Of a stretch of 64,000 bases of DNA, positions 1,592 through 37,758 are shown one piece after another. This DNA comes from Porticoccaceae bacterium (lineage in GTDB: Bacteria; Pseudomonadota; Gammaproteobacteria; Pseudomonadales; Porticoccaceae), in contig JAJFKC010000026.1 of the NCBI GenBank assembly GCA_021773435.1, positions 40,108 through 104,107 of the forward strand. Direction: 5' to 3'. A program made the translations under genes and the position numbers. The first letter of the stretch is position 1. Every line of letters begins with the position of its first letter. Under the pieces are notes generated by a model. The model was not told where the DNA came from and did not search any database. It worked only from the letters and a program-made list of their open reading frames with translations.

Positions 1592-2497
1592 ATGAAAATA
1601 GGCATCAACTCCGGCGCAGCATCCGGCCCCGAAACCACCTTTCCCGGCCTCATCGAGCGCGCAAAAAAAATGGAAGCCCACGGCTTCGACTGTTTCTGGA
1701 TGGCCAATATGTTCGGCCTCGACGCGCTGACTGCTCTGGCCATCGTCGGGCAAAACACCACCAAGATTCAGCTGGGTACGGCGGTAGTGCCTAGCTACCC
1801 CCGGCATCCGCTGGTCATGGCGCAACAGGCCGCCACCACCAATGCCGCAGCCTCGGGCCGCTTTCATCTCGGCATCGGCCTGTCCCACAAACCCATTATC
1901 GAAGGCATGTTTGGCATGTCCTACGACAAGCCCGCCAAGCACATGCGCGAATACCTCGAAGTACTCGCGCCAGCCGTGCGTAACGAGAAAGTCAACTACA
2001 AGGGTGAGCAGTACAGCGCCCGTGGCCAGATTGCCGTCAGCGAATCCGAGTCCGTGCCGGTGCTGGTCGCCGCTCTTGGCGATGTGATGCTAAAACTGGC
2101 TGGCACTCTGGCAGACGGCACCATCACCTGGATGACCGGCCTGAAAACCCTGGAAGATCATATTATCCCCAAAATTCGCAAAGCCGCCGCCGACGCCGGG
2201 CGGCCCGAACCACGCATTGTCGCCGGTGTTCCCACCGCCATCGTTTCGGACAAAGAAGCCGCCGTCGCCCGTATCGAGAAGGGTATGAAGATGTACGGCC
2301 AGCTGGATTCCTACCGCGCCATGCTAAACAAAGAAGGCGCATCAGGGCCATCCGACATTGCCAATATCGGTGATGAGGGTGAGCTGCGAAAATATATCCA
2401 GCGACTGCGGGATATTGGTGTCACCGACCTTAACTGTGCGGTATTGGGCGTGGGTGATCACGACACCACGGTGGAATTTATGGCTAGCGAGCTTTAA
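1592..2497 (+). CDS. LLM class F420-dependent oxidoreductase
   Basis: 301 aa. MKIGINSG...GFDCFWMANMFGLDALT...LGIGLSHKPIIE...DGTITWM is typical of the small LLM/F420 family. Confidence 0.8.
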   Translation: MKIGINSGAASGPETTFPGLIERAKKMEAHGFDCFWMANMFGLDALTALAIVGQNTTKIQLGTAVVPSYPRHPLVMAQQAATTNAAASGRFHLGIGLSHKPIIEGMFGMSYDKPAKHMREYLEVLAPAVRNEKVNYKGEQYSARGQIAVSESESVPVLVAALGDVMLKLAGTLADGTITWMTGLKTLEDHIIPKIRKAAADAGRPEPRIVAGVPTAIVSDKEAAVARIEKGMKMYGQLDSYRAMLNKEGASGPSDIANIGDEGELRKYIQRLRDIGVTDLNCAVLGVGDHDTTVEFMASEL

Positions 2498-2707
2498 GGC
2501 TGGAATAAAAAGCCTAAGGAAGGGCGCAGGCTGTTGAGGGTTCGTAAGGGGCTACTACAAAGTCAAAAAGGTCTTTTTAATCGGGCTTCGCTGATGCCGT
2601 AGATAGCTAAAACTCTATACCAGCGTTCGAAATCTTTGCGACCCCTTTGATGATCCGTACTGGATGCATGATCGGAGGAAGACAATTATAGCTAGATCGG
2701 CTAGAGT

Positions 2708-2728
2708 TGAGGTTCAGGAAGAACCTCA
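2708..2728. promoter_or_regulatory. Perfect 8-bp inverted repeat (TGAGGTTC-N5-GAACCTCA) just upstream of the antitoxin start. Candidate autoregulatory operator.
   Basis: Read directly at 2708-2715 and 2721-2728. It ends 10 nt before the ATG at 2739. RHH antitoxins usually bind palindromes in their own promoter. Confidence 0.4.
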
Positions 2729-2738
2729 GGGAATCGCT

Positions 2739-2987
2739 ATGCCGTTAAAAGCTACCTCAGTGAGACTGGACTACGAAACCTTAAAGCGTGTCGGCCAGAT
2801 GGCTGAGGCGATGGATAGACCCCGCGCGTGGCTGATGGCAGAAGCTATCAAACAATATGTAGCCCGTGAAGAATGGTTTATCCACGAAGTAGAAAATGGT
2901 GTGAAAGCAGCGGATGAAGGCCACTTGATTGACCATGCGGACATCAAAGCCAAGTGGGAGACGAGGCGTGCAGCTCAAATGGACTGA
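2739..2987 (+). CDS. Ribbon-helix-helix (CopG/ParD-like) type II antitoxin
   Basis: MPLKATSVRLDYETLKRVGQMAEAMDRPRAWLMAEAIKQYV. This has the RHH beta-strand (SVRLD) plus two helices. Its 3' end overlaps the downstream toxin gene. Confidence 0.75.
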   Translation: MPLKATSVRLDYETLKRVGQMAEAMDRPRAWLMAEAIKQYVAREEWFIHEVENGVKAADEGHLIDHADIKAKWETRRAAQMD

Positions 2988-3264
2988 CCTTGCCGACATT
3001 GATTTAAAAAACATCGAAGCCCATATTACCCAGAAAAATAGCCCCTTGGTTGCTATCGACTTGATTATAAACGTCATCGATAGAGTTAATCTGATCTTAC
3101 CCGACCATCCCAGAGCGGGGCGTCAGGGGAGATTGAAAAACACACGGGAGCTGGTCATTGATGATGTACCGTTTGTCGTGATCTATCGAGAGCATATGAA
3201 CGCAAATACGATTGAAATTTTACGCGTTCTTCATGAGACTCAGCAGTGGCCGACAGCGCGTTAA
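2968..3264 (+). CDS. RelE/ParE family type II toxin
   Basis: VQLKWTDLADIDLKNIEAHI...GRQGRLKNTRELVIDDVPFVVIYRE...IEILRVLHETQQWP matches the ParE/RelE pattern. I prefer the GTG start at 2968, which overlaps the antitoxin by 20 nt. The track ORF begins at 2929. Confidence 0.75.
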   Translation: MQLKWTDLADIDLKNIEAHITQKNSPLVAIDLIINVIDRVNLILPDHPRAGRQGRLKNTRELVIDDVPFVVIYREHMNANTIEILRVLHETQQWPTAR

Positions 3265-3295
3265 AGGAACCCGACCCCAGGCTTTGGATAGCTTT

Positions 3296-3314
3296 AATTC
3301 TAGACCCGACCCTC
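3296..3314 (-). repeat. Copy of the GGGTCnGGTCTAGA-core intergenic repeat (reverse orientation)
   Basis: The reverse complement reads GAGGGTCGGGTCTAGAATT. Related copies lie at 7237, 7452, 7525 and 9281. Confidence 0.5.
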
Positions 3315-3497
3315 GTGTCTTCAGAACTCCGTAATGCACAGGCACAAGTTGGGGATCCGGTTTAGAAGCAGGTTTCAGTAAGCCGAAGAATTGTAAGGAG
3401 TTTCTCAAACCAAACTCCGAACCTGGGCCGAACAGCTAATTATCTGATTCTATCGATGAATTACTAATTCGCCACCCACAGGGGTCTAACCATGTTT

Positions 3498-4340
3498 TCA
3501 GCGTAGCCTGAAGAAGTGATTTTGTAACCTGGGCCAAGGGATGCTGAGCTGGGAGAACATTCGTGGTAAAGCCCAGAAACTTATGGGCCTTGTCCCGCTG
3601 AGTGCCCACCACGTCAAGGAACCAAGCGTGGTAGATTCGCTCGGTAAGAATGGTAGCCACTTGCGACGCAGACTAACTAACTCCTCTGCAGTCACCAAAT
3701 TGGTGTAACCATAGTTCCGCCGCACTTCCACACGAAAGGGGCCTGCATCATCGAACAGTTGGCGGTACAGGTTTACGCTTCGGTAGACGGCCTGATACTC
3801 TCCCTGTGCCAGATATACGCTCTGATGTGAAGTCGATTCGCGGAGGATTATCGATCCCCCTTCAGTAAGACGGTTTTTTAAAGAGTGGAGCAGCTCAATA
3901 AGGTCGTCGTCATTCAGATACATACACAGCCCGCCCAGGAAGATCATGTCGAAGGAGCCTTCCGGCAAGTCATGTCGACCGTCGCCTTCGAGTATCTTAA
4001 CGTTGGGCAGACTCGCTACCCTTTCCCTGGCAGCCTTCAACATGAGCTTGCTTTGCTCGATTCCCATGACAGTCTTATAGCGCGGGGAAAAGATCTCTGA
4101 CCAGGTTCCTGCGCCACAGCCAACATCAAGCACTCGCCCCGAGTCATTCACCGCGCCCAGCCAATCGCTGATAGTTTCTATCTCTTTCTGCAGTCGATAT
4201 CTGGCCGCACTGGCTGGGAGATTGAACTCATGGGTCATCATGCTCACAGTGGCAGCGGTGCCACCCGATGCCTTATCAAAGTATTTCTTTACGGCTGCAT
4301 CGTCGATCTGTGCTTCGGTGGCGTTCTTATGATTCATCAC
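3498..4340 (-). CDS. Class I SAM-dependent methyltransferase
   Basis: Motif I is VLDVGCGAGTW, followed by an acidic loop and DMIFLGG..YL. It is the last gene of the AT-richer four-gene operon. The C-terminal ~50 aa are not typical of the fold, so the ORF may over-extend. Confidence 0.8.
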   Translation of the reverse strand: MMNHKNATEAQIDDAAVKKYFDKASGGTAATVSMMTHEFNLPASAARYRLQKEIETISDWLGAVNDSGRVLDVGCGAGTWSEIFSPRYKTVMGIEQSKLMLKAARERVASLPNVKILEGDGRHDLPEGSFDMIFLGGLCMYLNDDDLIELLHSLKNRLTEGGSIILRESTSHQSVYLAQGEYQAVYRSVNLYRQLFDDAGPFRVEVRRNYGYTNLVTAEELVSLRRKWLPFLPSESTTLGSLTWWALSGTRPISFWALPRMFSQLSIPWPRLQNHFFRLR

Positions 4341-4364
4341 TGGGTAATTTCTGTGATTTCATTG

Positions 4365-5006
4365 CTATCTTCTCAACAGCATCCAGCCATAAATAGCTGT
4401 TAATCCAAAGACATAGGCGGTGAGTACATAAACCCACCTTCCCGTAAACTTTGGCGTTCTTATTGGCGCTACATTCAAGGCCGCCATAGCGACAACAGTT
4501 ATGTATGTGACGACTGAAAAAAAAGTGTGGTTTAAAACAGACTCAAAGAGAAAGACAAAAGCGAGAATAATGCCATTATTGTCAACGGCCATTCCTATGT
4601 AAGACGAATCATCATTCAGTCCGAACAGATTGAAATAACTCAGCCGTATTGCGCAGGCCGCGACAATAAGAAATGCACCTGGCAGAAACAATGGGCTGAA
4701 TTCGCCATAGCTCAAGAGAATAAGCGCGGGAAGAACCCCAAAACTTACAATATCTATCAACGAGTCAAGCTGTCCCCCGAAAGCCTGGAATTCGTTTGTT
4801 CGACCCTTCATCCGACGGGCAATGATTCCATCGCCCCAATCAAAAAGTGTCGCCCAGATCATTCCGATTATTGCAGCAGGAAAGTTGCCCAGAACAGCGA
4901 AATATATACCAAGGACCGCACATAACAGACCTGCAAGGGAGCAGATATTGGGAAGATCTCTGACAAAAGAAAGTATTGTGGCTTGTTGAGGTTTGGGGCT
5001 TGTCAT
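4365..5006 (-). CDS. CDP-alcohol phosphatidyltransferase family membrane protein (PssA/Pcs-like)
   Basis: Signature DWGDGIIAR-x12-G-x3-D-x3-D followed by IVSFGVLP. The sequence has multiple hydrophobic helices. The layout resembles small bacterial subclass-II phosphatidylserine synthases, with a longer spacer after the AR. Confidence 0.85.
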   Translation of the reverse strand: MTSPKPQQATILSFVRDLPNICSLAGLLCAVLGIYFAVLGNFPAAIIGMIWATLFDWGDGIIARRMKGRTNEFQAFGGQLDSLIDIVSFGVLPALILLSYGEFSPLFLPGAFLIVAACAIRLSYFNLFGLNDDSSYIGMAVDNNGIILAFVFLFESVLNHTFFSVVTYITVVAMAALNVAPIRTPKFTGRWVYVLTAYVFGLTAIYGWMLLRR

Positions 5007-5011
5007 TGTTT

Positions 5012-6118
5012 CTATGCTTTTAAGTTCACTACATCGATTAAAGCCGCGACTAATTTACAATTCTCTTCTTCTGTACGACTGGCAATCCTGAGGTAACGGT
5101 CAGAATCGGGTTGAGTTTTACCTGAGCAGTCCTTTATGTACATGTTATGTTCAACAAATAATTTTTTCATAATTTCCGGTGCGCTTTGCACAGTATCTGG
5201 CAGGCGACAGAAAATGTAATTTGCATCTGGCTTGAAAACCGTCATACCTTTTACAGCACAAAGTTTTGTATAGAGGCTGTCTCTGTCAGCTCGAACCTGT
5301 TTGCAGCTTTCAATAAACTCATCTTTGTAATCAGGCAAAATCCGCAGAAACTCTTCGGCGAAACCGTTGATATTCCAGATGTGTACGCCATTTCTAACGG
5401 CCTGTGTAAATTCTGAATTCGCTGACAACATGTAACCAATCCTGAGCCCACAGATCCCGTAGGCCTTGCTCATGCTTTTGAAAATAGCCATATTCGGATA
5501 ATTTTCGATTTCTCGTTCCAGGCTTATTTGAGCAGGATTTTCTGCAAAATCCAAAAATGATTCGTCAATAATCAGAATGCAATTATGAGTTTCAAGTTTC
5601 TTTGCAAGGCGAATGAGATCGGCCTTGGAAACGAGCATAGATGTTGGATTATTCGGTGTAACCACGACAGCGACATCAGCTTTTACTCTCATCGCTTCGG
5701 CAGCAAATTTATCCACATCCAACTGGAAGGATGGAAATTCAAGTGGAAACTCAACGACTTTACCTGACGGCGCTGCATTGGCATATTCATTAAAAGAAGG
5801 CACGGGAACGATTAATTTACCCGCTATATGACCGGATACTATTTTTATTAATTCTGCAGCTCCGTTTCCCACAACAATTCTTTCGGCGGGTTGGTCAATT
5901 ACTTTGCCAACAAGGTTGGCAAGGGCATCTTGTGCCACCGGATAATTCAGAACAAGATCATGAATTTGATCTTTAAAGTTTGTGAAGATAGCCTCAGGCG
6001 GGAAATAAAGATTATAAAGATAGGCATGGTCTATAAAATCATGCCTATAGTAACCACCATGTTGCTTAGAGATAAATTCGTATTTTTCAGATTGAGTCTT
6101 GTAATTATTTTGCGACAC
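5012..6118 (-). CDS. PLP-dependent class I/II aminotransferase-fold enzyme (HisC/CobD-like; aminotransferase or phospho-amino-acid decarboxylase)
   Basis: The SMSKAYGICGLRIGY Schiff-base lysine motif and the TPNNPT motif are present. The window also holds a canonical hisC at 34582-35643, so this is a paralog with another role. Confidence 0.8.
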   Translation of the reverse strand: MSQNNYKTQSEKYEFISKQHGGYYRHDFIDHAYLYNLYFPPEAIFTNFKDQIHDLVLNYPVAQDALANLVGKVIDQPAERIVVGNGAAELIKIVSGHIAGKLIVPVPSFNEYANAAPSGKVVEFPLEFPSFQLDVDKFAAEAMRVKADVAVVVTPNNPTSMLVSKADLIRLAKKLETHNCILIIDESFLDFAENPAQISLEREIENYPNMAIFKSMSKAYGICGLRIGYMLSANSEFTQAVRNGVHIWNINGFAEEFLRILPDYKDEFIESCKQVRADRDSLYTKLCAVKGMTVFKPDANYIFCRLPDTVQSAPEIMKKLFVEHNMYIKDCSGKTQPDSDRYLRIASRTEEENCKLVAALIDVVNLKA

Positions 6119-6971
6119 TTAAGGCTTCTGCTGCTTTTTTTGCAGGGATTACGTCATTGCTTAATGGAGTGTCAAGAAAACGCGGCGCTGAAAGAGGAAC
6201 AGTTTTTACATCCATGTACTTATCTGATAAAAATAGTTTCTCTGCTATTGCCAAATCGGCAAGAGTGTCTATTTCATACCAAGGCTTGCCGTCAAAAGAG
6301 ACACTTTCAAAAGAGAGACTGCCATCGACAATCATTTGTGCAAATACGGTTTCGTAATAATCATTTACTTTGCCATCTGAAATAGACTTGTCTAATCTTT
6401 GTACAATCCCATTCCAGGACTTAAGTGAAATGCTGTAAATATTCACAGTTTTGTATTTTATCTCACCAAAAGAATCTGCCTTGTCTGCCAAAAATGCTTT
6501 AACTTTTTTAGACTTATTGATAGTTACGCTCGTCCCATTCATCCAGGGCTGCAACCTTGCGGCAGCTAGTCTGTCGGGATAGAGCATGTCGTCCAGAAGC
6601 GATTCATCAAAAACAAGATCACTTTCGAGTAAGAGAAACGGCTCACTGATAACTTTACGTGCCATCCAGAGAGAATAGATATTATTGGTAGACTTATATA
6701 AGGGGCTGAAAATATATTCGACTTTTATGCCACCCATCTGATCACCCAAAAAATCTTTTATGTAATTTTCAAGATATCCTGTAACCACAACCAGCCGTTT
6801 GAAACCATGCTGATTCAGAATGTTGATCATCCGTTCAAGTATTGATATGCCATTGACTATTGTCAGACATTTTGGAGCGTTCTGAGTTAAGGGGTATAGG
6901 CGGGAGCCTGTTCCGGCGGCGAGAAGTAGTGCGGTGCTTATCCGTTTTTTATCCTGGTGCCCATGCTTCAA
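6105..6971 (-). CDS. LicC-like nucleotidyltransferase (CTP:phospho-alcohol cytidylyltransferase family)
   Basis: An N-terminal LLLAAGTGSRLYPLT loop, then KSTNNIYSLW and WYEIDTLADL, as in LicC/PntC-type cytidylyltransferases. Overlaps the downstream PLP-enzyme gene by 14 nt. Confidence 0.8.
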   Translation of the reverse strand: MKHGHQDKKRISTALLLAAGTGSRLYPLTQNAPKCLTIVNGISILERMINILNQHGFKRLVVVTGYLENYIKDFLGDQMGGIKVEYIFSPLYKSTNNIYSLWMARKVISEPFLLLESDLVFDESLLDDMLYPDRLAAARLQPWMNGTSVTINKSKKVKAFLADKADSFGEIKYKTVNIYSISLKSWNGIVQRLDKSISDGKVNDYYETVFAQMIVDGSLSFESVSFDGKPWYEIDTLADLAIAEKLFLSDKYMDVKTVPLSAPRFLDTPLSNDVIPAKKAAEALSVAK

Positions 6972-7236
6972 TTTTTATCCTTCCTTTAAGTGTGAAAAAT
7001 CTAAACGTATCGATTGTTGGTAGAAAACGAAGCCACGGCTTCGTGAATTACCAAGCAAAAAGCTACATTAAGAAAAAACAAAGGTAGGGATTTGAGCAGT
7101 GGGTAGTTGCCGGGTAAAGCCAGCTGCTAAATGGTAGAACAACTGGCAGCATGCCAGAAAGGTCGCGCAAAGTACAGGTTCTTGTGGAGACGAAGGGTCG
7201 CTGAAGATACTTATGGGACTAAAAAGAGGCCGGGAT

Positions 7237-7256
7237 AGAGGTCTAGATTCGATGCC
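7237..7256 (+). repeat. Copy of the GGTCTAGA-core intergenic repeat
   Basis: AGAGGTCTAGATTCGATGCC. Nearly identical to the copy at 7452-7471 (CGGGGTCTAGATTTGATGCC). Confidence 0.5.
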
Positions 7257-7451
7257 TAGAAAACCAGTTTCCAAAATCAATCCGCCTCCCGAATTCGAGC
7301 CTTACGCACAATTTCCCACGAGAAGCTAACTGACTCGGGGCTTGCAATGCCACATTGCTCTACAAGAAAACCCAGGGGCACGTCTTAAAGCCATACAATG
7401 TTGGCCATCGGGTTCGATGCTGTGATTCTGCGATAGCCTGACGTCAAAAAA

Positions 7452-7471
7452 CGGGGTCTAGATTTGATGCC
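7452..7471 (+). repeat. Copy of the GGTCTAGA-core intergenic repeat
   Basis: CGGGGTCTAGATTTGATGCC. Direct repeat of 7237-7256. Confidence 0.5.
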
Positions 7472-7524
7472 CACAGAGCAAAGCTTACCTAAACAACCCA
7501 CATGTCTAGCTGAGACAAGACTTC

Positions 7525-7544
7525 ATTTCTAGACCTGACCCTTC
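7525..7544 (-). repeat. Copy of the GGGTCnGGTCTAGA-core intergenic repeat (reverse orientation)
   Basis: The reverse complement reads GAAGGGTCAGGTCTAGAAAT. Confidence 0.5.
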
Positions 7545-7974
7545 TTCCTGCATAGGGGATATTGTCGGCACCACTCTACACCCGTTGCACAACACCCGGT
7601 TCAACAATCCAAAAAATGTTTTCGACCACGCATGCCAGGAAGGAGATTTCCGCGTGATTGTCCTCGCTACAAGCGACTAGCATTTCTCATCCGGTCACTA
7701 TCTCCCTGAAAAGAACTCGCGTGTAATTTATTTGCCCTACGACCGAATCAGTGGACACTTTACTTACGCGTACGAGCTTATCAGGCAAATATTTCTCAGT
7801 CTCTATCACGCAATCTTCATTATATTGATTTATATCAATGTTTAATGCCTAGAATAAAGTATTATTTTATCGGTTAATTTTTACCGACCATTAAGATATC
7901 ACTTAGCACTTAAATTAGGTTCCGCGTGCCCCGGAGGGCGTGGCGGCGCTTTTGTTATTAAGATAAGGAAAAAC

Positions 7975-8874
7975 ATGACAGAGTTGGAATTAATTGACAA
8001 AGCAGTAAGCGCAAGTTCACCTGGAGGAGCGAAATCACCCATCATCTTCGATCTCAATGCCAAGAATGGAAAAATAAACTGGAACGCGGATGGCTCGTAT
8101 CCCTACAGCTCCAAAATGGATGTGCTTGAATATGAGCAACACAAACATGAACTACAGATTGAACTGTTAAAAATGCAAAATTGGGTGAAGGAAACCAGTC
8201 AACGCATAGTTATTCTTTTTGAGGGCCGTGATGCAGCGGGTAAAGGGGGCACCATTAAGCGCTTCACGGAACATCTTAACCCTCGAGGAGCCAGGGTTGT
8301 CGCGCTTGAGAAGCCTAATGCCCGTGAGCGCAACCAGTGGTATTTTCAACGTTATATCCAACACCTACCTAGCAAAGGTGAAATAGTGCTATTTGACCGC
8401 TCCTGGTACAACCGGGCCGGGGTAGATAAGGTGATGAATTTCTGTACCGATCATGAGCATCTCGAATTCCTGCGGCAAGCTCCACAACTGGAAAGAATGC
8501 TAGTTAATAGCGGGATTATCCTCTTTAAATACTGGTTTTCGGTGAGTCGAGAGGAGCAATTTCGACGTTTCAAGTCACGACAGAACGATCCGCTCAAACA
8601 GTGGAAATTAAGTCCGGTAGATTTGGCTTCACTGGAACGCTGGGATGACTACACCGGTGCCAAACAAAGCATGTTTTTCCACACTGATACCCGGGACGCG
8701 CCGTGGACGGTTATTCGCTCGGATGATAAGAAAAGGGGGCGCATCAACTGTATCCGTCATTTCTTATCATCATTGGATTATCCTAATAAGGACGAAGCTA
8801 TTGTTGGCCAGGCAGACCCTTTAATCGCTGGCCCGATAGATCGTATTCATGAACGCGATGAAGTCGTGATGTAA
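7975..8874 (+). CDS. ppk2: Polyphosphate kinase 2 (PPK2 family)
   Basis: Walker A-like FEGRDAAGKGGTIKR, then SWYNRAG and a lid region, all characteristic of PPK2. Confidence 0.9.
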   Translation: MTELELIDKAVSASSPGGAKSPIIFDLNAKNGKINWNADGSYPYSSKMDVLEYEQHKHELQIELLKMQNWVKETSQRIVILFEGRDAAGKGGTIKRFTEHLNPRGARVVALEKPNARERNQWYFQRYIQHLPSKGEIVLFDRSWYNRAGVDKVMNFCTDHEHLEFLRQAPQLERMLVNSGIILFKYWFSVSREEQFRRFKSRQNDPLKQWKLSPVDLASLERWDDYTGAKQSMFFHTDTRDAPWTVIRSDDKKRGRINCIRHFLSSLDYPNKDEAIVGQADPLIAGPIDRIHERDEVVM

Positions 8875-8901
8875 CACCTGGCTCAATATAGGAAACAAGC
8901 A

Positions 8902-9231
8902 ATGCAATCCAAAAAAAATATGAAGCGCCTTGAAAAATTACTGGAAAAATCCAAAGAACGCCTGGAACATGCTATTGATCAGGCTGGGAAAGCAGCAAAA
9001 CGTGCTGAAAAAGCCCAGGAGGCAGCCAACACTGCGCGCGAGCAACTCAAACAAGTTGAGAAATTAATCAAGAAACAGCAGGCAAACAAGGCCGTCAGGA
9101 AACAGGCCGCTAAAAAAGCTGCGATTAAGAAGGCTAAAAAAGCCTCCGCAAAAAAGAACGGAAATAACAAATCCAATAAAAATGGGAGGAATAAAAAAGC
9201 GCGTGCCAAGATACCTAATAGAGCTGCCTGA
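8902..9231 (+). CDS. Lys/Ala-rich, predicted coiled-coil basic protein (histone H1/AlgP-like composition)
   Basis: 109 aa, strongly basic and low-complexity (…KKAAIKKAKKASAKKNGNNKSNKNGRNKKARAK…). Starts 27 nt after the ppk2 stop, preceded by AGGAAA. No family motif, so the call rests on composition only. Confidence 0.6.
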   Translation: MQSKKNMKRLEKLLEKSKERLEHAIDQAGKAAKRAEKAQEAANTAREQLKQVEKLIKKQQANKAVRKQAAKKAAIKKAKKASAKKNGNNKSNKNGRNKKARAKIPNRAA

Positions 9232-9280
9232 ATATTATCAGAGGGATCACGGACTGCGGGGTAAGCAAACTCTAAACCAT

Positions 9281-9300
9281 GAGGGTCCGGTCTAGATTCC
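9281..9300 (+). repeat. Copy of the GGGTCnGGTCTAGA-core intergenic repeat
   Basis: GAGGGTCCGGTCTAGATTCC, lying between the basic-protein gene and the GST gene. Confidence 0.5.
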
Positions 9301-9327
9301 GCTGGCTCTTGACCCCACTAATCTCTA

Positions 9328-26629: not shown

Positions 26630-28861
26630 CTAGTGAATATCTTTCCAGTATTCTCGATTCAGCAGCACAACCCAGATAAGCAAAAATGCCAGGAATAGTA
26701 GTACATAGACGCCCGTCTGACGGCTTTCTTCAACCACAGGGTTTGCCAGATAAGACAGGAAGTTGACGAGATCATAGACAGCTTCATCATATTCGACCGG
26801 ACTTAACTCGCCTTTAGTCAACAATTCATAGTTGCCGCAGGGATCGTCATTGAGAGGTTCGCTGGTCAGCGGGTCGACCTTAATGCCGCCATTCGTAGCC
26901 AGGGTTGGGCCATCCGTGCAGCCAGGTAAACCCTGCAAATCAAGCAGCGCGTGGGGCATGCCCACATCTTTAAATACTTTGTTATTGACGCCAATAGGTC
27001 GGCTTTCGTCGGCGTAGAAATTTCGCAAATAAGTATAAACCCACTTCCCGGATCGGGCTCGCGTCACCAACGTTAAGTCTGGTGGTGGCGCACCAAACCA
27101 GTCCTTGCCGGAACGTTCAGACATTGATATCTCCATCAGCCCACCGATTTTTTGGCCGCTAAAGACGAGGTTGTCCATCATCATGCCGTGGGGAATATCT
27201 AAATCGTCGGCTACGCGTTCCCACCGTGAGTAGGCAGCGGCGTGGCACCCCATGCAGTAATTGACAAATATTTTCGCGCCGTTTTGTAGAGATTCCTGGT
27301 CGGTAGCATCGGCCTCAAAGGCATCACAGCTAATGGCGCCACAGTCATGGTTAGCTTCCGACCCAGCCGCTTTGAGAGGCAAAATAATCAGCGCGAGGAC
27401 AATGAACAGGACACTCAACGAGCGCCAGAAACCCATGCCGCCGTCCATGGTAATGCGATCCGGTTCCGGTTTTGATATGTTTCGTTCAACTAACCAGGGC
27501 AGTACCAGAAAAAACAGGCCCAGCACAATAGAGCAGATTCTTACCACTATGGATAGTTCGACGCCCTCTTTGGGCATACCTAAGCCAAAGAAGCCAATGG
27601 CAAAAATCCCGGTGAGTAGATAGCGCAGTATGGATACCCCACCTTTCTTCACCGACCAAACCGGCATGGTTATAAAGAATGCGAAATACATGACCATGGT
27701 TATTTGGGCGAGCAGGGTTCGATCATCAGTCGGCGCCTTAACACCGAGAACTCCGAGGATCACAAAGGATGCAGCAAACAGCAGCAGCATTATTCCAGTA
27801 ATGCGACCTTTATATCGGAACGATTTTTCCTTACTTTTATCCAGCCAGGGCAGGACGAATAAAATAGCTATCGCAGCCGCCATGGCCAGAAAGCCCATGA
27901 ATTTAGCCGTTAATGGGCCAATCTCAAAAGTGACCGCCCGCAACATGGAGTAAAACGGCGTGAAATACCAAACCGGTGCAATATGCTCAGGTGTTTTTAA
28001 TCGATTTGCCTCTTCGAAATTGGCGTACTCAATGAAGTAGCCACCCATCTCTGGCATAAAGAAAATAATGAAGCAGAACACAAACAGGAAAACCGCCACC
28101 GGCACCAGATCGTGCACGGTGTAATACGGATGGAACGGAATGCCATCCAGAGGAATGCCATTTTCATCCTTATCCTTTTTAATTTCGACGCCGTCTGGAT
28201 TATTGGAACCAACTTCGTGCAGGGCCAACAAATGCAACACCACCAAACCCAATAAAACGATGGGTACGGCGACGACATGTAAAGCAAAAAATCGATTCAG
28301 GGTGATGCCAGAGATCAAATAATCACCTCGCACCCATTCGACGATACCTTCGCCGATAACCGGAATTGCGCCGAATAGAGAGATGATCACCTGAGCACCC
28401 CAGTAGGACATTTGTCCCCAGGGCAGCACATAACCGAAGAAACCTTCGGCCATCAGGGCCAGGAAAATAGCCATGCCAAATAGCCAGACCAGCTCACGGG
28501 GTGCTTTGTAAGAGCCATAGAGCAAGCCACGGAACATGTGTAGATATACCACGAGAAAAAAAGCTGACGCCCCGGTGGAGTGCATATAGCGCAGTATCCA
28601 ACCGAAATCTACATCACGCATAATGTATTCGACCGATGCAAATGCACGCTCGGCGGAGGGTTCATAATTCATGGTCAGCCAGATACCGGTGACAAACTGG
28701 TTAACCAACACCAGCAACGACAGAACCCCAAAGAAATACCAGAAGTTAAAGTTCTTCGGCGCGTAATACTTCGCCATGTGAGTATCCCACGCCCGCTGCA
28801 CCGGTAAACGTGCATCAATCCAGCCCCATAGGGCGCCTAACCAGGCCACGATCAACTTCAT
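26630..28861 (-). CDS. petBC: Cytochrome b / cytochrome c1 fusion protein of the bc1 complex (single 743-aa reading frame)
   Basis: The N-terminal ~420 aa are cytochrome b (…FNFWYFFG…, PEWYF-equivalent APVWYFTPFY). Two extra hydrophobic helices follow. Then comes a signal-peptide-like helix (FWRSLSVLFIVLALIILPLKAAG). The rest is a c1 domain with the CMGCH haem motif and a C-terminal anchor (VYVLLFLAFLLIWVVLL). No stop codon separates the parts. Confidence 0.85.
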   Translation of the reverse strand: MKLIVAWLGALWGWIDARLPVQRAWDTHMAKYYAPKNFNFWYFFGVLSLLVLVNQFVTGIWLTMNYEPSAERAFASVEYIMRDVDFGWILRYMHSTGASAFFLVVYLHMFRGLLYGSYKAPRELVWLFGMAIFLALMAEGFFGYVLPWGQMSYWGAQVIISLFGAIPVIGEGIVEWVRGDYLISGITLNRFFALHVVAVPIVLLGLVVLHLLALHEVGSNNPDGVEIKKDKDENGIPLDGIPFHPYYTVHDLVPVAVFLFVFCFIIFFMPEMGGYFIEYANFEEANRLKTPEHIAPVWYFTPFYSMLRAVTFEIGPLTAKFMGFLAMAAAIAILFVLPWLDKSKEKSFRYKGRITGIMLLLFAASFVILGVLGVKAPTDDRTLLAQITMVMYFAFFITMPVWSVKKGGVSILRYLLTGIFAIGFFGLGMPKEGVELSIVVRICSIVLGLFFLVLPWLVERNISKPEPDRITMDGGMGFWRSLSVLFIVLALIILPLKAAGSEANHDCGAISCDAFEADATDQESLQNGAKIFVNYCMGCHAAAYSRWERVADDLDIPHGMMMDNLVFSGQKIGGLMEISMSERSGKDWFGAPPPDLTLVTRARSGKWVYTYLRNFYADESRPIGVNNKVFKDVGMPHALLDLQGLPGCTDGPTLATNGGIKVDPLTSEPLNDDPCGNYELLTKGELSPVEYDEAVYDLVNFLSYLANPVVEESRQTGVYVLLFLAFLLIWVVLLNREYWKDIH

Positions 28862-34581: not shown

Positions 34582-35643
34582 TCACAGAATAATTTCTTTG
34601 AGCGCTTCGACAAGCAAAGCCATTTGCGAATCTGTACCGATGGTAATACGTAAATGTTGCTTTATGCGCGGCTGATCAAAATGGCGAACGATGATATTTT
34701 TGTCCCGCAACCGAGCAGCTAGATCGCTGCCTTCAAAGTTGGGCTGACGGGCAAAAACAAAATTTGCCTTGGAGGGAATAACCTCAAAACCTAAGCCAGC
34801 CAACTCCTCGACTAGAGCTTCGCGCGCGTCTACAACCCGTGCACAAATACTCTGAAAATAGTCTTGATCGGCAATGGCAGCGACACCACCGGCAATAGCC
34901 AGTCGATCTAGCGGGTAGGAGTTAAAACTATTTTTGACCCTCTCTAGAGCTTCGATAAGCGAACTGTCACCCATGGCAAAGCCGAGCCGAAGCCCGGCCA
35001 ATGACCGAGATTTTGACAGGGTTTGTACCACCAGAAGATTCTTATAGCGGTCTACCAAAGCCACTGCACTTTCGCCGCCAAAATCGATGTAGGCCTCATC
35101 AATCACCACAACACTGTCCGGATTGCCGACTAGCACTTGCTCAATTTCTGACAGCGTCAACAGGCGCCCAGTGGGCGCGTTGGGGTTTGCAAGCACGATG
35201 CCGCCATTGGGCCGGATATAGTCATCAACGCGAATCCCTAACTCATCATCCAGCGTAATAGCTTCATGAGTTATAGTATAAAGACCGCAATAAACGGGAT
35301 AAAAACTGTAAGTGATATCCGCGAACAGCACCGGTAGCTGATGGCGCAGTAAACCATTAAAAACATGCGCGAGCACCTCATCCGAGCCATTCCCCACGAA
35401 CACCTGATTTGGTTCCAGGCTGTAGTAATTCGCAACACTCAGCTTGAGCTGATCGGCACCCGGTGGTGGATAGAGACGTAACTCGTCAGATGCAGCGTCC
35501 TTAATAGCAGACAGCACCAATGGCGATGGACCGTAGGGGTTTTCATTGGTATTGAGTTTGACCAGGCCGGAAACCGCGGGCTGTTCACCGGGCACATAAG
35601 GCTCCAAATCCCTGACAAAATCGCTCCATAGAGGGCTAGTCAT
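34582..35643 (-). CDS. hisC: Histidinol-phosphate aminotransferase
   Basis: [34 protein letters not shown]. Lies downstream of hisD. Confidence 0.9.
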
Positions 35644-35654
35644 AGGGCTGTCCG

Positions 35655-36962
35655 CTAGTCCCCCAGGCGGTATTCGGCAGAACGAGCGTGTGCGGTTAAG
35701 GATTCACTACGCGCTAGCACTGAAGCAGTTTTCGCCAATGTCGCGGCACCGACCGGACTACAATCGATAATTGACGTCCGCTTTTGAAAATCATAAACCC
35801 CAAGCGGTGACGAAAACCTCGCAGTCGTAGAGGTCGGCAATACGTGATTAGCGCCTGCACAATAATCGCCCAGGGCTTCCGGTGTGTGTCGGCCAAGAAA
35901 AATGGCACCGGCGTGAACAATCTGCGCTGCTAACTCCTGAGGATTATCGACCGCCAACTGTAAATGTTCGGGGGCAATACGATTAGCCAATGTGACCGCC
36001 TCTTGCTGGTCGACCACCTGAATCAACGCGCCTCGGCTCTCTATCGATTTTCGGATAATGTCGTGTCTTTCCATGGAGGCCAACAAAGTGGTCATGCTGC
36101 TCTGCACCTGATCCAGAAAATCGCCATCAGCGCTAATAAGAATGGCCTGGGCTTCCTCATCATGTTCAGCCTGAGAAAACAGATCCATGGCTATCCAGTC
36201 AGGATTAGTTCCGCTATCACTAATAATCAGTATTTCTGATGGCCCCGCCACCATATCCAGCCCGACCTGACCGAATACCGCTTTTTTGGCAGCAGCCACA
36301 TAACGATTACCTGGGCCGACAATTTTGTCCACTTTGGGTATGGTCTCGGTGCCATAAGTCAAGGCGGCAATGGCCTGGGCACCGCCGACTGTGAACAATC
36401 GCGTGACCCCAGCTATTTGAGCCGCGGCCAATACCAGCGGGTTAATGCTGTCGCCGGGCGCGGGCACGGTCATAATAATTTCTTCGACACCGGCGACGCG
36501 CGCGGGTATGGCATTCATCAAAACCGATGAGGGATAACTGGCCTTGCCGCCCGGCACGTAGATACCAACCCGTTTTAAGGCACTGACGCGCTGACCCAGC
36601 GAGGTGCCATCGGCCTCCTTAAATTGCCAGGACTGCTGCTTTTGGTGCTCGTGATAAGTCTGAATACGAGTGGCGGCGATATTCAGCGCTTCGCGCTGCT
36701 CGGGGGTAATCTGGGTGAGCGCAGCCTGCATTTGTTGTTGGCTAATTTCGAGATCAGCAATGTCCGTCAGCTGTCGGTTATCGAAGCTGCGGGTGTAATC
36801 GAGCACCGCTCTATCACCGTGATCGCGCACCGTGTTTAGAATTTCGAGAACAAGCGTATTGACCTGCTCGTCAGCTGTTTCATCGCGCTGCATTAGGGCA
36901 GTAAATGCGTCCTCAAATGCTGACTCACCTGTATTCAGACGCGCCGGCTTTAGATCAGCCAT
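35655..36962 (-). CDS. hisD: Histidinol dehydrogenase
   Basis: Conserved [18 protein letters not shown] and HVLPT motifs. The ATG at 36962 overlaps the hisG stop by 8 nt (ATGGCTGA). Confidence 0.95.
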
Positions 36963-37659
36963 TATCTGATACAAGGTCTAAGCCAACGTCTGATACAACG
37001 CCCGAGCCAACGCCCGAGCCAACGCCCGAGCCAATGATCGCCCCTACCGCCGCATTTAAGTCAGCAATCAAAGGCTGAATGACGGCATGTTTAATTTTTA
37101 ATGCGCCTTTATTTACTATCAAACGGGCGCTGATATTGGCAATTAATTCGCGAGACTCCAGGCCATTGGCTTTCATGGTATTGCCGGTATCGACGATATC
37201 GACAATTTCATCGCACAGGGAAACCAGCGGCGCTAGCTCCATGGCGCCATAGAGTTTGATCACGTCTGCCTGACGGCCACATTCAGCATAATAACGCCGC
37301 GCCACGTTCAGGTATTTGGTCGCCACGCGTATCCGCCCTTCGGGTCGGCTAGCACCCACCACACCGGCGGTCATCAAGCGGCACCGGGAAATACCCAGAT
37401 CGACGGGTTCGTAATAGCCGTTGCCGCCATGCTCCATCAAGGTATCTTTACCGGCAACGCCCACATCTGCTGCACCAAACTGCACATAGGTCGGCACATC
37501 AACACCGCGCAGCACTAGCAGGCGTACGTCGTCGCGGTTAGTCCCAAACATGAGCTTGCGGCTAGCCGAAATATCTTCGTCAGGTTTTATACCTGCCTCG
37601 GCAAGTAGGGGCAGCGTTTCTTTGAGTATTCGGCCCTTGGTGAGCGCGATGGTAATCAT
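36955..37659 (-). CDS. hisG: ATP phosphoribosyltransferase (short HisG form) with an unusual Gly/Ser/Val repeat tail
   Basis: [12 protein letters not shown]...VATKY...IVDTGNT. Ends …[27 protein letters not shown]. Confidence 0.9.
36997..37032. repeat. Three perfect tandem copies of a 12-nt unit (AACGCCCGAGCC) inside the hisG 3' end
   Basis: Read directly. On the coding strand it encodes (GSGV)x3. Confidence 0.95.
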
Positions 37660-37758
37660 GGCCGTTTTCCGTTGCACCAGTCTAAATGTGCACATTAATA
37701 ATATTAATCGGTACTTGTTAACGTTTAAATTCAGCTATTTAACTTCAACTATTTAACT

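Follow-up and report, generated by a model that had tools for sequence, protein, structure and literature searches.

The locus described here raises the question of what is made by a compact set of four genes whose products are annotated in public records as phosphatidylserine synthase, threonine-phosphate decarboxylase or histidinol-phosphate transaminase, and S-adenosylmethionine (SAM)-dependent methyltransferase. The genes lie on the minus strand of a 64,000-nucleotide stretch of Porticoccaceae bacterium DNA (GenBank assembly GCA_021773435.1, contig JAJFKC010000026.1, positions 40,108 to 104,107), which as a whole is called the window below, and they encode a LicC/PntC-like nucleotidyltransferase (NT), a pyridoxal phosphate (PLP) enzyme, a PssA-like cytidine diphosphate (CDP)-alcohol phosphatidyltransferase (CDP-OH) and a methyltransferase (MT). 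The first three constitute a conserved module, to which the fourth is an optional and interchangeable addition. Tentatively, and chiefly on grounds of homology and gene neighbourhood, we propose that this cassette would turn phosphoserine into phosphoethanolamine, then CDP-ethanolamine, then a phosphatidylethanolamine (PE)-like lipid and finally an N-methylated lipid.

A conserved three-gene module with an interchangeable fourth gene

The NT gene (6105..6971, minus strand; 288 aa; Pfam NTP_transferase) is predicted to encode a CTP:phospho(no)-amino-alcohol cytidylyltransferase, and the PLP gene (5012..6118, minus strand; 368 aa; Aminotran_1_2) an enzyme of the CobD/SMUL_1544/HisC fold. The CDP-OH gene (4365..5006, minus strand; 213 aa; CDP-OH_P_transf) encodes a predicted polytopic membrane protein with several hydrophobic stretches, and the MT gene (3498..4337, minus strand; 279 aa; Methyltransf_25/11) a putative class I SAM-dependent N-methyltransferase with a tailoring role. 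A first-pass annotation, made from the letters of the window, had described four tightly linked minus-strand genes of these families, and both the linkage and the family calls hold: the NT and PLP genes overlap by 14 nt, and the subsequent gaps are 5 nt and 24 nt. Public protein collections contain exact copies of three of the four translations, and the fourth, MT, matches from its second codon onward; its open reading frame (ORF) runs from 4340 to 3498 (280 aa), and the public database protein begins at the ATG at 4337 (279 aa). The NT gene begins at a TTG codon with AAGGAAGGA ahead of it, both of which are kept in relatives, and its Shine-Dalgarno sequence is AGGAAGG.

Metagenome contigs were scanned with a CDP-OH protein profile, which yielded at least 578 confirmed relatives; 80 loci were kept, picked by their CDP-OH gene only. 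Where the loci contained enough sequence, the gene immediately upstream of CDP-OH was PLP in 49 of 54, and an NT gene lay upstream in 31 of 37; MT was the next gene downstream in only 8 of 55. When all ORFs of 86 related loci were clustered, just five families recurred, namely CDP-OH (86 loci), PLP (69), NT (49), an ATP-grasp protein (23) and MT (15-16), with the MT and ATP-grasp genes mutually exclusive; no recurrent kinase, transporter, phosphoenolpyruvate (PEP) mutase, cob gene or regulator was found in these loci. The overlapping or near-abutting gene order persists over an identity range of about 55% to 96%, in dozens of unrelated contexts. The linkage of NT, PLP and CDP-OH is far beyond chance, and the functional unit consists of these three genes and, in some loci, a fourth that can be exchanged, either MT or an ATP-grasp ligase. 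The four-gene pathway unit of the first-pass annotation, and the co-occurrence of the whole set that it had offered as a check, thus survive as regards the triad, but not as a fixed set of four, MT being outside the core. Because only these five families recur, the input of the cassette should be a common or universal metabolite. The earlier claim that no kinase is needed agrees with the absence of a co-occurring kinase from the 86 loci, and fits a universal substrate such as phosphoserine.

Two other candidate tailoring enzymes occur in related loci. The ATP-grasp protein (about 423 aa) takes the place of MT after the CDP-OH gene in L024 (5662-6933) and in 22 other loci (for example L037, L040 and L047). 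Its matches to ATP-grasp_3 and to the amino-acid ligases LdmS and BesA are weak, and it may ligate an amino acid to the amine of the head group. In L015 (3807-4619), a different methyltransferase lies between the NT and PLP genes; it is 31% identical, resembles the alpha-amino-methylating Methyltransf_PK/NTM1 family, and seems to have been recruited independently as an amine methyltransferase.

Base composition also bears on the fourth gene. The GC content and third-position GC content (GC3) are 0.403 and 0.388 for the NT gene, 0.405 and 0.374 for the PLP gene, 0.449 and 0.439 for the CDP-OH gene, and 0.525 and 0.596 for the MT gene; the island that carries the cassette (see below) has a GC content of 0.45 and the window outside it 0.509. 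The description of the set as an AT-richer four-gene operon is therefore right for the first three genes (0.403-0.449) and wrong for MT, whose GC content is host-like. In 11 of 11 MT-linked loci the MT gene stands 4-10 GC points above the PLP and CDP-OH genes, an excess not seen for the ATP-grasp gene, and this step fits MT as a later addition to the triad.

The nucleotidyltransferase pocket

NT aligns over its full length with Streptococcus pneumoniae LicC (1jyk; residues 5-247 to 20-250, 1.4e-17), and in its N-terminal half it can be aligned with the PntC domain of Treponema Tde1415 (6pd1, 3.5e-12), where the LLLESDL motif is identical. Among 40 homologues D118 never varies, nor do E116 and E207, whatever the fourth gene; the AAGTGSRL stretch, which fits the family signature G-x-G-(T/S)-R-L, is likewise invariant, as are E233 and D235, which with D118 represent the metal-binding acidic residues. 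E116 was placed by means of the PntC LLLESDL motif, since the automatic LicC alignment is one residue off there. In PntC, according to Rice et al. (PMC6697681), two residues, Glu104 and Glu196, form hydrogen bonds with the primary amine of 2-aminoethylphosphonate (AEP); their LicC counterparts are the smaller Asp105 and Asp192, leaving room for the trimethylammonium group of choline (PMC6697681). NT does not have the Asp/Asp pair of LicC; Glu116/Glu207 is the PntC state. This Glu/Glu pocket points to a small primary amine, such as phosphoethanolamine, as the substrate, and its invariance suggests that every variant of the cassette uses the same one.

The arrangement is reminiscent of Pnt clusters, in which a LicC-like NT with a Glu/Glu pocket (PntC) activates a 2-aminoethyl-phosphorus compound delivered by an adjacent PLP enzyme. 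The cassette differs from these clusters in that it has no PEP mutase (0 of 86 loci, the enzyme appearing only in the distant S. meliloti sister module described below) and in that its PLP enzyme is CobD-like rather than a class V or aspartate aminotransferase (AspAT)-like transaminase. The lack of PEP mutase argues that the activated compound would be a phosphate ester and not a phosphonate. Among NCBIfam models, the top matches of NT are sugar-1-phosphate enzymes, all far under cut-off; an inositol-phosphate cytidylyltransferase (IPCT)/DIPP synthase model is matched over the full length, also below threshold, with 66.5 bits.

The PLP enzyme

The best NCBIfam model for the PLP enzyme is that of CobD (TIGR01140, 178 bits against a cut-off of 290.55), and the HisC model gives 140 bits (TIGR01141, cut-off 276.55). 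Its best match in the PDB is 6oux, a "threonine phosphate decarboxylase-like enzyme" (1.2e-39), and then come 3ftb and Salmonella CobD (1lc5, 5e-26); in alignments of about 300-325 residues the context of the Schiff-base lysine, FKSMSKAYG, is set against VKSLSKDFG in 6oux and LRSLTKFYA in 1lc5. By these scores and matches the enzyme comes out as CobD-like. We take 6oux to be SMUL_1544, which is said to decarboxylate serine phosphate to ethanolamine phosphate for norcobamides. The cassette enzyme has the same lysine context as the CobD/SMUL_1544 decarboxylases of (nor)cobamide biosynthesis, which are its closest solved relatives, but it is only about one-third identical to them, falls under the CobD cut-off, and is accompanied by lipid-type partners instead of cobamide genes.

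No cob or cbi gene and no B12 riboswitch was found near the cassette in the window, and no cob gene recurs in the 86 loci. Rfam gave no match in the whole window at the gathering threshold, nor in 6900-8000 at E<=1, and a tRNA scan was likewise negative; a riboswitch or a link to B12 is thus unsupported. A hisG-hisD-hisC operon is present elsewhere in the window (34582-37695, minus strand), and its hisC (34582-35643) scores 284.6 bits, above the HisC cut-off, and is 23% identical to the cassette PLP enzyme. Because the true hisC stands there beside hisD and hisG, the cassette enzyme is a separate paralogue and not the histidine-pathway enzyme. We predict that it is a phospho-amino-acid decarboxylase that converts phosphoserine to phosphoethanolamine.

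The transferase and its probable donor

CDP-OH matches Pfam PF01066 with 48.8 bits against a cut-off of 22. The signature D56xxD59GxxAR64-x12-G77xxxD81xxxD85 is invariant, and further family motifs are RLSYFN(L/V)FG and Y136-G138-D142-N143-N144. More specific NCBIfam models are matched below their cut-offs: arch_ser_synth (NF038087) with 86.8 bits against 240, pssA (TIGR00473) with 75 against 107, and the Pcs models (NF045884 and related) with 16-24 against 300-440. In its x12 spacing the protein presumably resembles Pcs. The only clear solved relatives are the structures of the Methanocaldococcus jannaschii phosphatidylserine synthase MjPSS (7b1k/7pow), which align end to end at 7e-11; the TM score against MjPSS is about 0.55, obtained with a low-confidence AlphaFold model.

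PssA of the archaeal/Bacillus type has the same fold and length as CDP-OH, in which every catalytic Asp of MjPSS is conserved, along with its LDS and R...FG elements. CDP-OH differs by a four-residue insertion in the signature, which produces the x12 spacing, by a three-residue insertion near the acceptor site, and by being consistently paired with a cytidylyltransferase; this last feature argues for a soluble CDP donor other than CDP-diacylglycerol (CDP-DAG). R104 of MjPSS is replaced in CDP-OH, beside the three-residue insertion, and the invariant Y-x-G-x-A-x-D-N-N motif stands where MjPSS has FIGLPIPAG. We infer that this remodelling of the site adapts the enzyme to a soluble CDP-amino-alcohol. 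No alignment column of CDP-OH separates MT-linked from ATP-grasp-linked loci.

A search of plasmid proteins placed members of the same CDP-OH subfamily (30-39% identity, RLSYF(N/E)xFG) in cultured rhizobia, in what appear to be sister modules. On pSymA of Sinorhizobium meliloti AK57 (L098, CP130046.1, 545538-549238; Q1M63_03070-03085), the cluster consists of aepX (PEP mutase), an AspAT-like aminotransferase gene, an NT gene, a CDP-OH gene and an AsnB-like gene, the last apparently split. The NT of this cluster is LicC/PntC-like and 33% identical to that of the window, and its gene overlaps the CDP-OH gene (39%, RLSYFNVFG) by 4 nt. We regard the pSymA cluster as a candidate phosphonolipid module; no ORF of phosphonopyruvate-decarboxylase size lies within about 7 kb, so that phosphonoalanine, and not AEP, may be what is activated. 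On pRLN3 of Rhizobium leguminosarum Norway (L099, NZ_CP025015.1, 156097-160585; CUJ84_RS33000-33015), the NT gene is followed by genes for a GHMP kinase (weakly ThrB-like), CDP-OH and an AsnB-like amidotransferase, next to an ABC transporter and a DeoR regulator, in what would be a kinase-fed version of the module. The NT and the PssA-like transferase are constant and the third gene, the supplier, varies, which strongly implies that the donor used by CDP-OH is the CMP-conjugate formed by NT. In the marine triad the supplier would be the CobD-like enzyme, with phosphoserine as the simplest candidate substrate.

The methyltransferase

The best PDB matches of the MT family profile are to the first domain of Arabidopsis PMT1/PMT2 (5wp4, 2.6e-20; 5wp5, 1.5e-18), followed by nematode PMT1 (4krg, 6wlf); the next unrelated family appears at about 1e-11. 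The alignment with the PMT proteins continues through ILRESTvHQ...Y..vYR...Y, set against FFRESCFHQSGD..NPTHYREPRFY. In an exhaustive search, the family to which MT itself belongs proved small; just outside it are di-domain proteins (about 470-570 aa) resembling phosphoethanolamine methyltransferases (PEAMTs), intermixed with bacterial methyltransferases of about 270 aa that have a C-terminal NHFF ending. The first domain of PEAMT carries out the first methylation only (PMC8353235).

MT appears to resemble the PEAMTs (plant PMT1/2, nematode PMT-1 and Plasmodium PMT) in the SAM core of the first domain and in the RES...Y..YR..Y stretch, and it differs from them in being a single-domain bacterial protein of 279 aa with a distinctive Trp/Arg-rich C-terminal region that ends in NHFF. 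Its predicted chemistry, N-methylation of an ethanolamine-phosphate group, is that of the PEAMTs and also of PmtA, the bacterial phospholipid N-methyltransferase. The last 75 residues of MT contain five W, five F and ten R/K against three D/E, with no transmembrane segment, and look like a membrane-interface tail. Distant relatives of MT (40-44% identity) adjoin distant members of the CDP-OH family (42-47%) in two loci, L094 and L097. The invariant NT pocket, taken together with this tail and with the lack of any CDP-OH column that tracks the fourth gene, favours methylation after transfer, in which case MT would act on the transferred head group rather than on free phosphoethanolamine.

A proposed pathway and its alternatives

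In the pathway that we tentatively prefer, the PLP enzyme would form phosphoethanolamine by decarboxylating O-phospho-L-serine, an intermediate universal to serine synthesis; NT would join phosphoethanolamine with CTP to give CDP-ethanolamine; and CDP-OH would move the phosphoethanolamine group from CDP-ethanolamine to a membrane acceptor with release of CMP. The acceptor would most probably be diacylglycerol, giving PE or a PE-like lipid. In the window variant only, MT would then N-methylate the ethanolamine head group, most probably post-transfer, to yield monomethyl-PE (MMPE) and possibly dimethyl-PE or phosphatidylcholine (PC). The cassette would thereby represent a self-contained, kinase-free bacterial analogue of the CDP-ethanolamine (Kennedy) branch. 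The first-pass annotation had put the steps in the same order, and this order is the best-supported reading in view of the PntC-like NT pocket, the CobD-like PLP enzyme, the PEAMT-like MT and the recurring pair of NT and CDP-OH; what had to be given up is the fixed four-gene form.

Several observations weigh against this pathway. All four cassette proteins fall under the curated cut-offs of every specific NCBIfam model, and CobD and HisC are so alike in fold that sequence alone cannot prove decarboxylation over transamination. CDP-OH is closest to PssA, which has CDP-DAG as donor and serine as acceptor. The residues around the reacting serine of MjPSS are D62, S63, D66, F105 and R101 (PMC8633023), and CDP-OH keeps these serine-holding residues as D81, S82, D85, F128 and R121, which would allow a serine-like acceptor or a CDP-DAG donor. 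The alignment of MT with PEAMTs is limited to about 130 residues, and Foldseek is non-specific among class I methyltransferases, though the core of the MT model is confident; overall, the AlphaFold models of MT and CDP-OH are mediocre (pLDDT 68 and 64). In L097 (665-3532), a PLP gene (29% identity), two small ORFs, a CDP-OH gene (47%) and an MT gene (44%) occur with no NT gene within 660 nt upstream, and L094 (2590-4213) has a divergently oriented pair of CDP-OH (42%) and MT (40%) genes with neither an NT nor a PLP gene inside its 6 kb. Finally, gammaproteobacteria normally make PE already. Hosts that contain PE would gain little from a second route to it, which hints that the product, perhaps one not yet described, or the acceptor may be a different one.

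There is also a broader possibility, which we consider unlikely: NT and the PssA-like transferase may be the core of unrecognised modular, horizontally traded "head-group cassettes", with the marine product a new lipid or solute class and not PE. The suppliers would then be a phosphoserine decarboxylase, a PEP mutase plus aminotransferase, or a hydroxy-amino-acid kinase, and the tailoring genes would encode an N-methyltransferase, an ATP-grasp ligase or an AsnB-like amidotransferase, so that varied amino-phospho(no)lipids or phosphodiester solutes would result.

A more specific departure from the preferred pathway concerns the order of the steps. If MT acted first, free phosphoethanolamine would be methylated, NT would form CDP-choline or CDP-N-methylethanolamine, and CDP-OH would deliver PC or MMPE, making the cassette a de novo CDP-choline route. 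The closest characterised relatives of MT all methylate a soluble phospho-base, the best full-length PDB match of NT, LicC, is a phosphocholine enzyme, and Treponema has a CDP-choline route with a CPT transferase (PMC8590670). NT, however, has the Glu/Glu pocket and not the Asp/Asp of LicC, identically with MT, ATP-grasp or neither, and no position of CDP-OH tracks the fourth gene. MT, moreover, appears closest to the PEAMT domain that performs only the first methylation, and it has a membrane-interface-like tail that soluble PEAMTs do not possess. On balance we judge this order of steps improbable.

To much the same degree we doubt that the head group is other than ethanolamine, that is, that the PLP enzyme acts like CobD on phosphothreonine to give aminopropanol phosphate, on O-phosphohomoserine to give propanolamine phosphate, or as a HisC-type transaminase (for example, forming phosphoserine from phosphohydroxypyruvate or serinol phosphate from dihydroxyacetone phosphate), with an unusual amino-phospholipid as the outcome. 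HisC-type enzymes naturally act on a phospho-amino-alcohol, and the PLP enzyme is under the cut-offs of both CobD and HisC. The rhizobial modules, with their aminotransferase or ThrB-like kinase and AsnB-like protein, appear to retain an amino-acid-type head group, and the redundancy of plain PE in PE-containing hosts argues in the same direction. Against these points, 6oux is the best solved relative and the CobD model scores above the HisC model; phosphothreonine would require a dedicated kinase, and none co-occurs; and the apparent kinship of MT with the PEAMTs points to an ethanolamine-type group.

Quite improbable, in our estimate, is a product that is not a glycerolipid, either a soluble phosphodiester formed in the manner of DIPP synthase from CDP-ethanolamine and L-serine or glycerol (a serine-phosphoethanolamine- or glycerophosphoethanolamine-like solute), or the product of transfer to a lipid-linked glycan or ceramide acceptor, followed by methylation or amino-acid ligation. 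The conserved serine-holding residues and the sub-threshold 66.5-bit match of NT to the IPCT/DIPP synthase model would agree with a solute, as would the occurrence of the cassette in marine, osmotically stressed habitats, and the redundancy of PE again speaks against plain PE. The alignment of CDP-OH with PssA nevertheless spans the whole protein and takes in the C-terminal helices, which in MjPSS hold the acyl chains; the tail of MT appears membrane-interfacial; and no solute transporter or regulator co-occurs. That the genes belong to no single pathway, being an ordinary PssA or Pcs using CDP-DAG, a cobamide CobD or spare HisC, and a sugar-phosphate nucleotidyltransferase, as the housekeeping names in public annotation and the sugar-1-phosphate matches of NT (far under cut-off) might suggest, is hardly credible given the tight synteny across about 55-96% identity in dozens of unrelated contexts, the lack of cob genes or a cobalamin riboswitch, the real hisC in its his operon, the failure of all specific family cut-offs and the full-length match of NT to LicC.

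Relation to known routes

Bacterial PE is made via Pss and Psd. Four routes to PC have been described in bacteria, namely Pmt, Pcs, the Treponema CDP-choline pathway and acylation of glycerophosphocholine (PMC8590670), and none of these starts from phosphoserine decarboxylation. A literature search found no description of the gene set or of a bacterial phosphoserine decarboxylase in lipid synthesis. What is already known is each enzyme family and the Kennedy logic; what is new is the gene combination, the entry step, a PssA-like transferase that apparently uses a CDP-amino-alcohol, and the modular, mobile architecture.

The nearest analogues are the Kennedy pathway and the CDP-choline pathway of Treponema denticola (LicCA plus CPT), in which, as proposed for the cassette, a phospho-base is converted to a CMP-activated base and then transferred by a member of the CDP-alcohol phosphatidyltransferase family; the Treponema pathway likewise uses a LicC-type cytidylyltransferase (PMC8590670). 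The Kennedy-type pair of cytidylyltransferase and CDP-alcohol transferase genes is present and co-inherited in the cassette, whereas no ethanolamine or choline kinase, the entry step of the Kennedy pathway, was found in the window cassette or in the 86 loci. The cassette would thus do without a kinase or external ethanolamine or choline, its phospho-base being predicted to come from phosphoserine. CDP-OH is small and PssA-like, and is not detectably related to the eukaryotic CPT/EPT enzymes (human CHPT1, 9uet: Foldseek E=1.5, TMq 0.39).

If the preferred pathway is correct, bacteria would have a new way into phospholipid head-group synthesis, a kinase-independent CDP-ethanolamine route that begins with phosphoserine, Kennedy-type logic would be widespread in free-living marine bacteria, and a function would be assigned to hundreds of genes now called phosphatidylserine synthase, threonine-phosphate decarboxylase or generic methyltransferase. 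If the broader reading of head-group cassettes holds, they could, for example, give rise to the methylated PE-type lipids observed in marine samples. The cassette is compact (three to four genes), would need only universal metabolites and passes between lineages, and is therefore a potential tool for engineering membrane composition. Genetic work could draw on cultured strains, the rhizobia that carry the sister modules.

The leader, the island and its neighbours

The operon is preceded by a conserved 5' leader (6972..7200, minus strand) with a hairpin (7043-7028) and a T-run (7027-7024) about 53 nt ahead of the TTG start. The leader is about 81% identical over 205-225 nt in loci L001, L002 and L014 and is partially conserved in L026, L029 and L038. 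The hairpin is terminator-like, with a loop that varies (CGTG, TTCG, TGCG), the fold z-score of the leader is -2.2, and the hairpin may serve as an attenuator. The idea that the leader is a general regulator of the cassette was dropped, because it is confined to close relatives and the hairpin is deleted in L014. Between the leader and the divergent gene described next, about 775 nt (7200-7975) contain no ORF of at least 80 aa, and this segment gave no RNA-family match and has no relatives among the fetched loci.

The cassette sits in a strain-specific island of about 6.8 kb (2496..9304), as judged from the related contig L011, whose DNA is 82-86% identical to the window up to 2495 and again from 9305. 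At the corresponding position L011 has an aldehyde dehydrogenase, a glyoxalase and a Na/H exchanger. The island contains an RHH/ParE pair, the four cassette genes, about 1 kb free of ORFs, a class I polyphosphate kinase 2 (PPK2) and a 109-aa ORF. The overlapping ORFs of the ribbon-helix-helix (RHH, CopG-type) antitoxin and ParE toxin are at the island edge (2664..3264, plus strand; Pfam RHH_1 and ParE_toxin), and the island-free L011 has a weak trace of their DNA (68% over 180 nt). The PPK2 gene (7975-8874, plus strand; TIGR03707, 389 bits) diverges from the cassette. PPK2 was rejected as a CTP-regenerating partner of the cassette, since it is conserved in no other locus; the window protein is the sole member of its 90% cluster.

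The cassette is horizontally acquired and mobile, on the basis of the island borders, of transposase and toxin-antitoxin neighbours, and of versions in different lineages. In L008, on a contig of 2.15 Mb, a 323-aa Y1 transposase of the IS200/IS605 type or REP-associated (5161-6132) occupies the position of NT before PLP, CDP-OH and MT, and this copy of the cassette may be inactive or dependent on an NT encoded elsewhere; a Y1 transposase remnant was sought in the 1 kb spacer upstream of the window cassette and was not found. In L009/L010, DDE and IS1595 transposases split the cassette and a YefM/YoeB pair flanks it, and in L004 a phage-type integrase is its neighbour. Halioglobus-labelled contigs and an uncultured bacterium contain versions that are 83-96% identical, as does, for the PLP gene only, a Mariprofundaceae metagenome-assembled genome (MAG), and a version that is 60-84% identical occurs in a Deltaproteobacteria MAG. 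Members with at least 90% identity bear Mariprofundaceae and Halioglobus labels; this taxonomic spread rests on MAG labels and could be inflated by binning. A scan of GTDB species genomes with a single protein gave only five close loci, all in MAGs, and the region has no DNA match in Escherichia coli genomes. The flanking genes for MoeA, a CoA-transferase, LLM oxidoreductases and glutathione S-transferases belong to clusters of at least 90% identity with Porticoccaceae and other marine gammaproteobacterial MAGs. Further away in the window, one 743-aa ORF (26630-28861, minus strand) combines the N- and C-terminal domains of cytochrome b with a cytochrome c1 domain and would encode a fused bc1 subunit.

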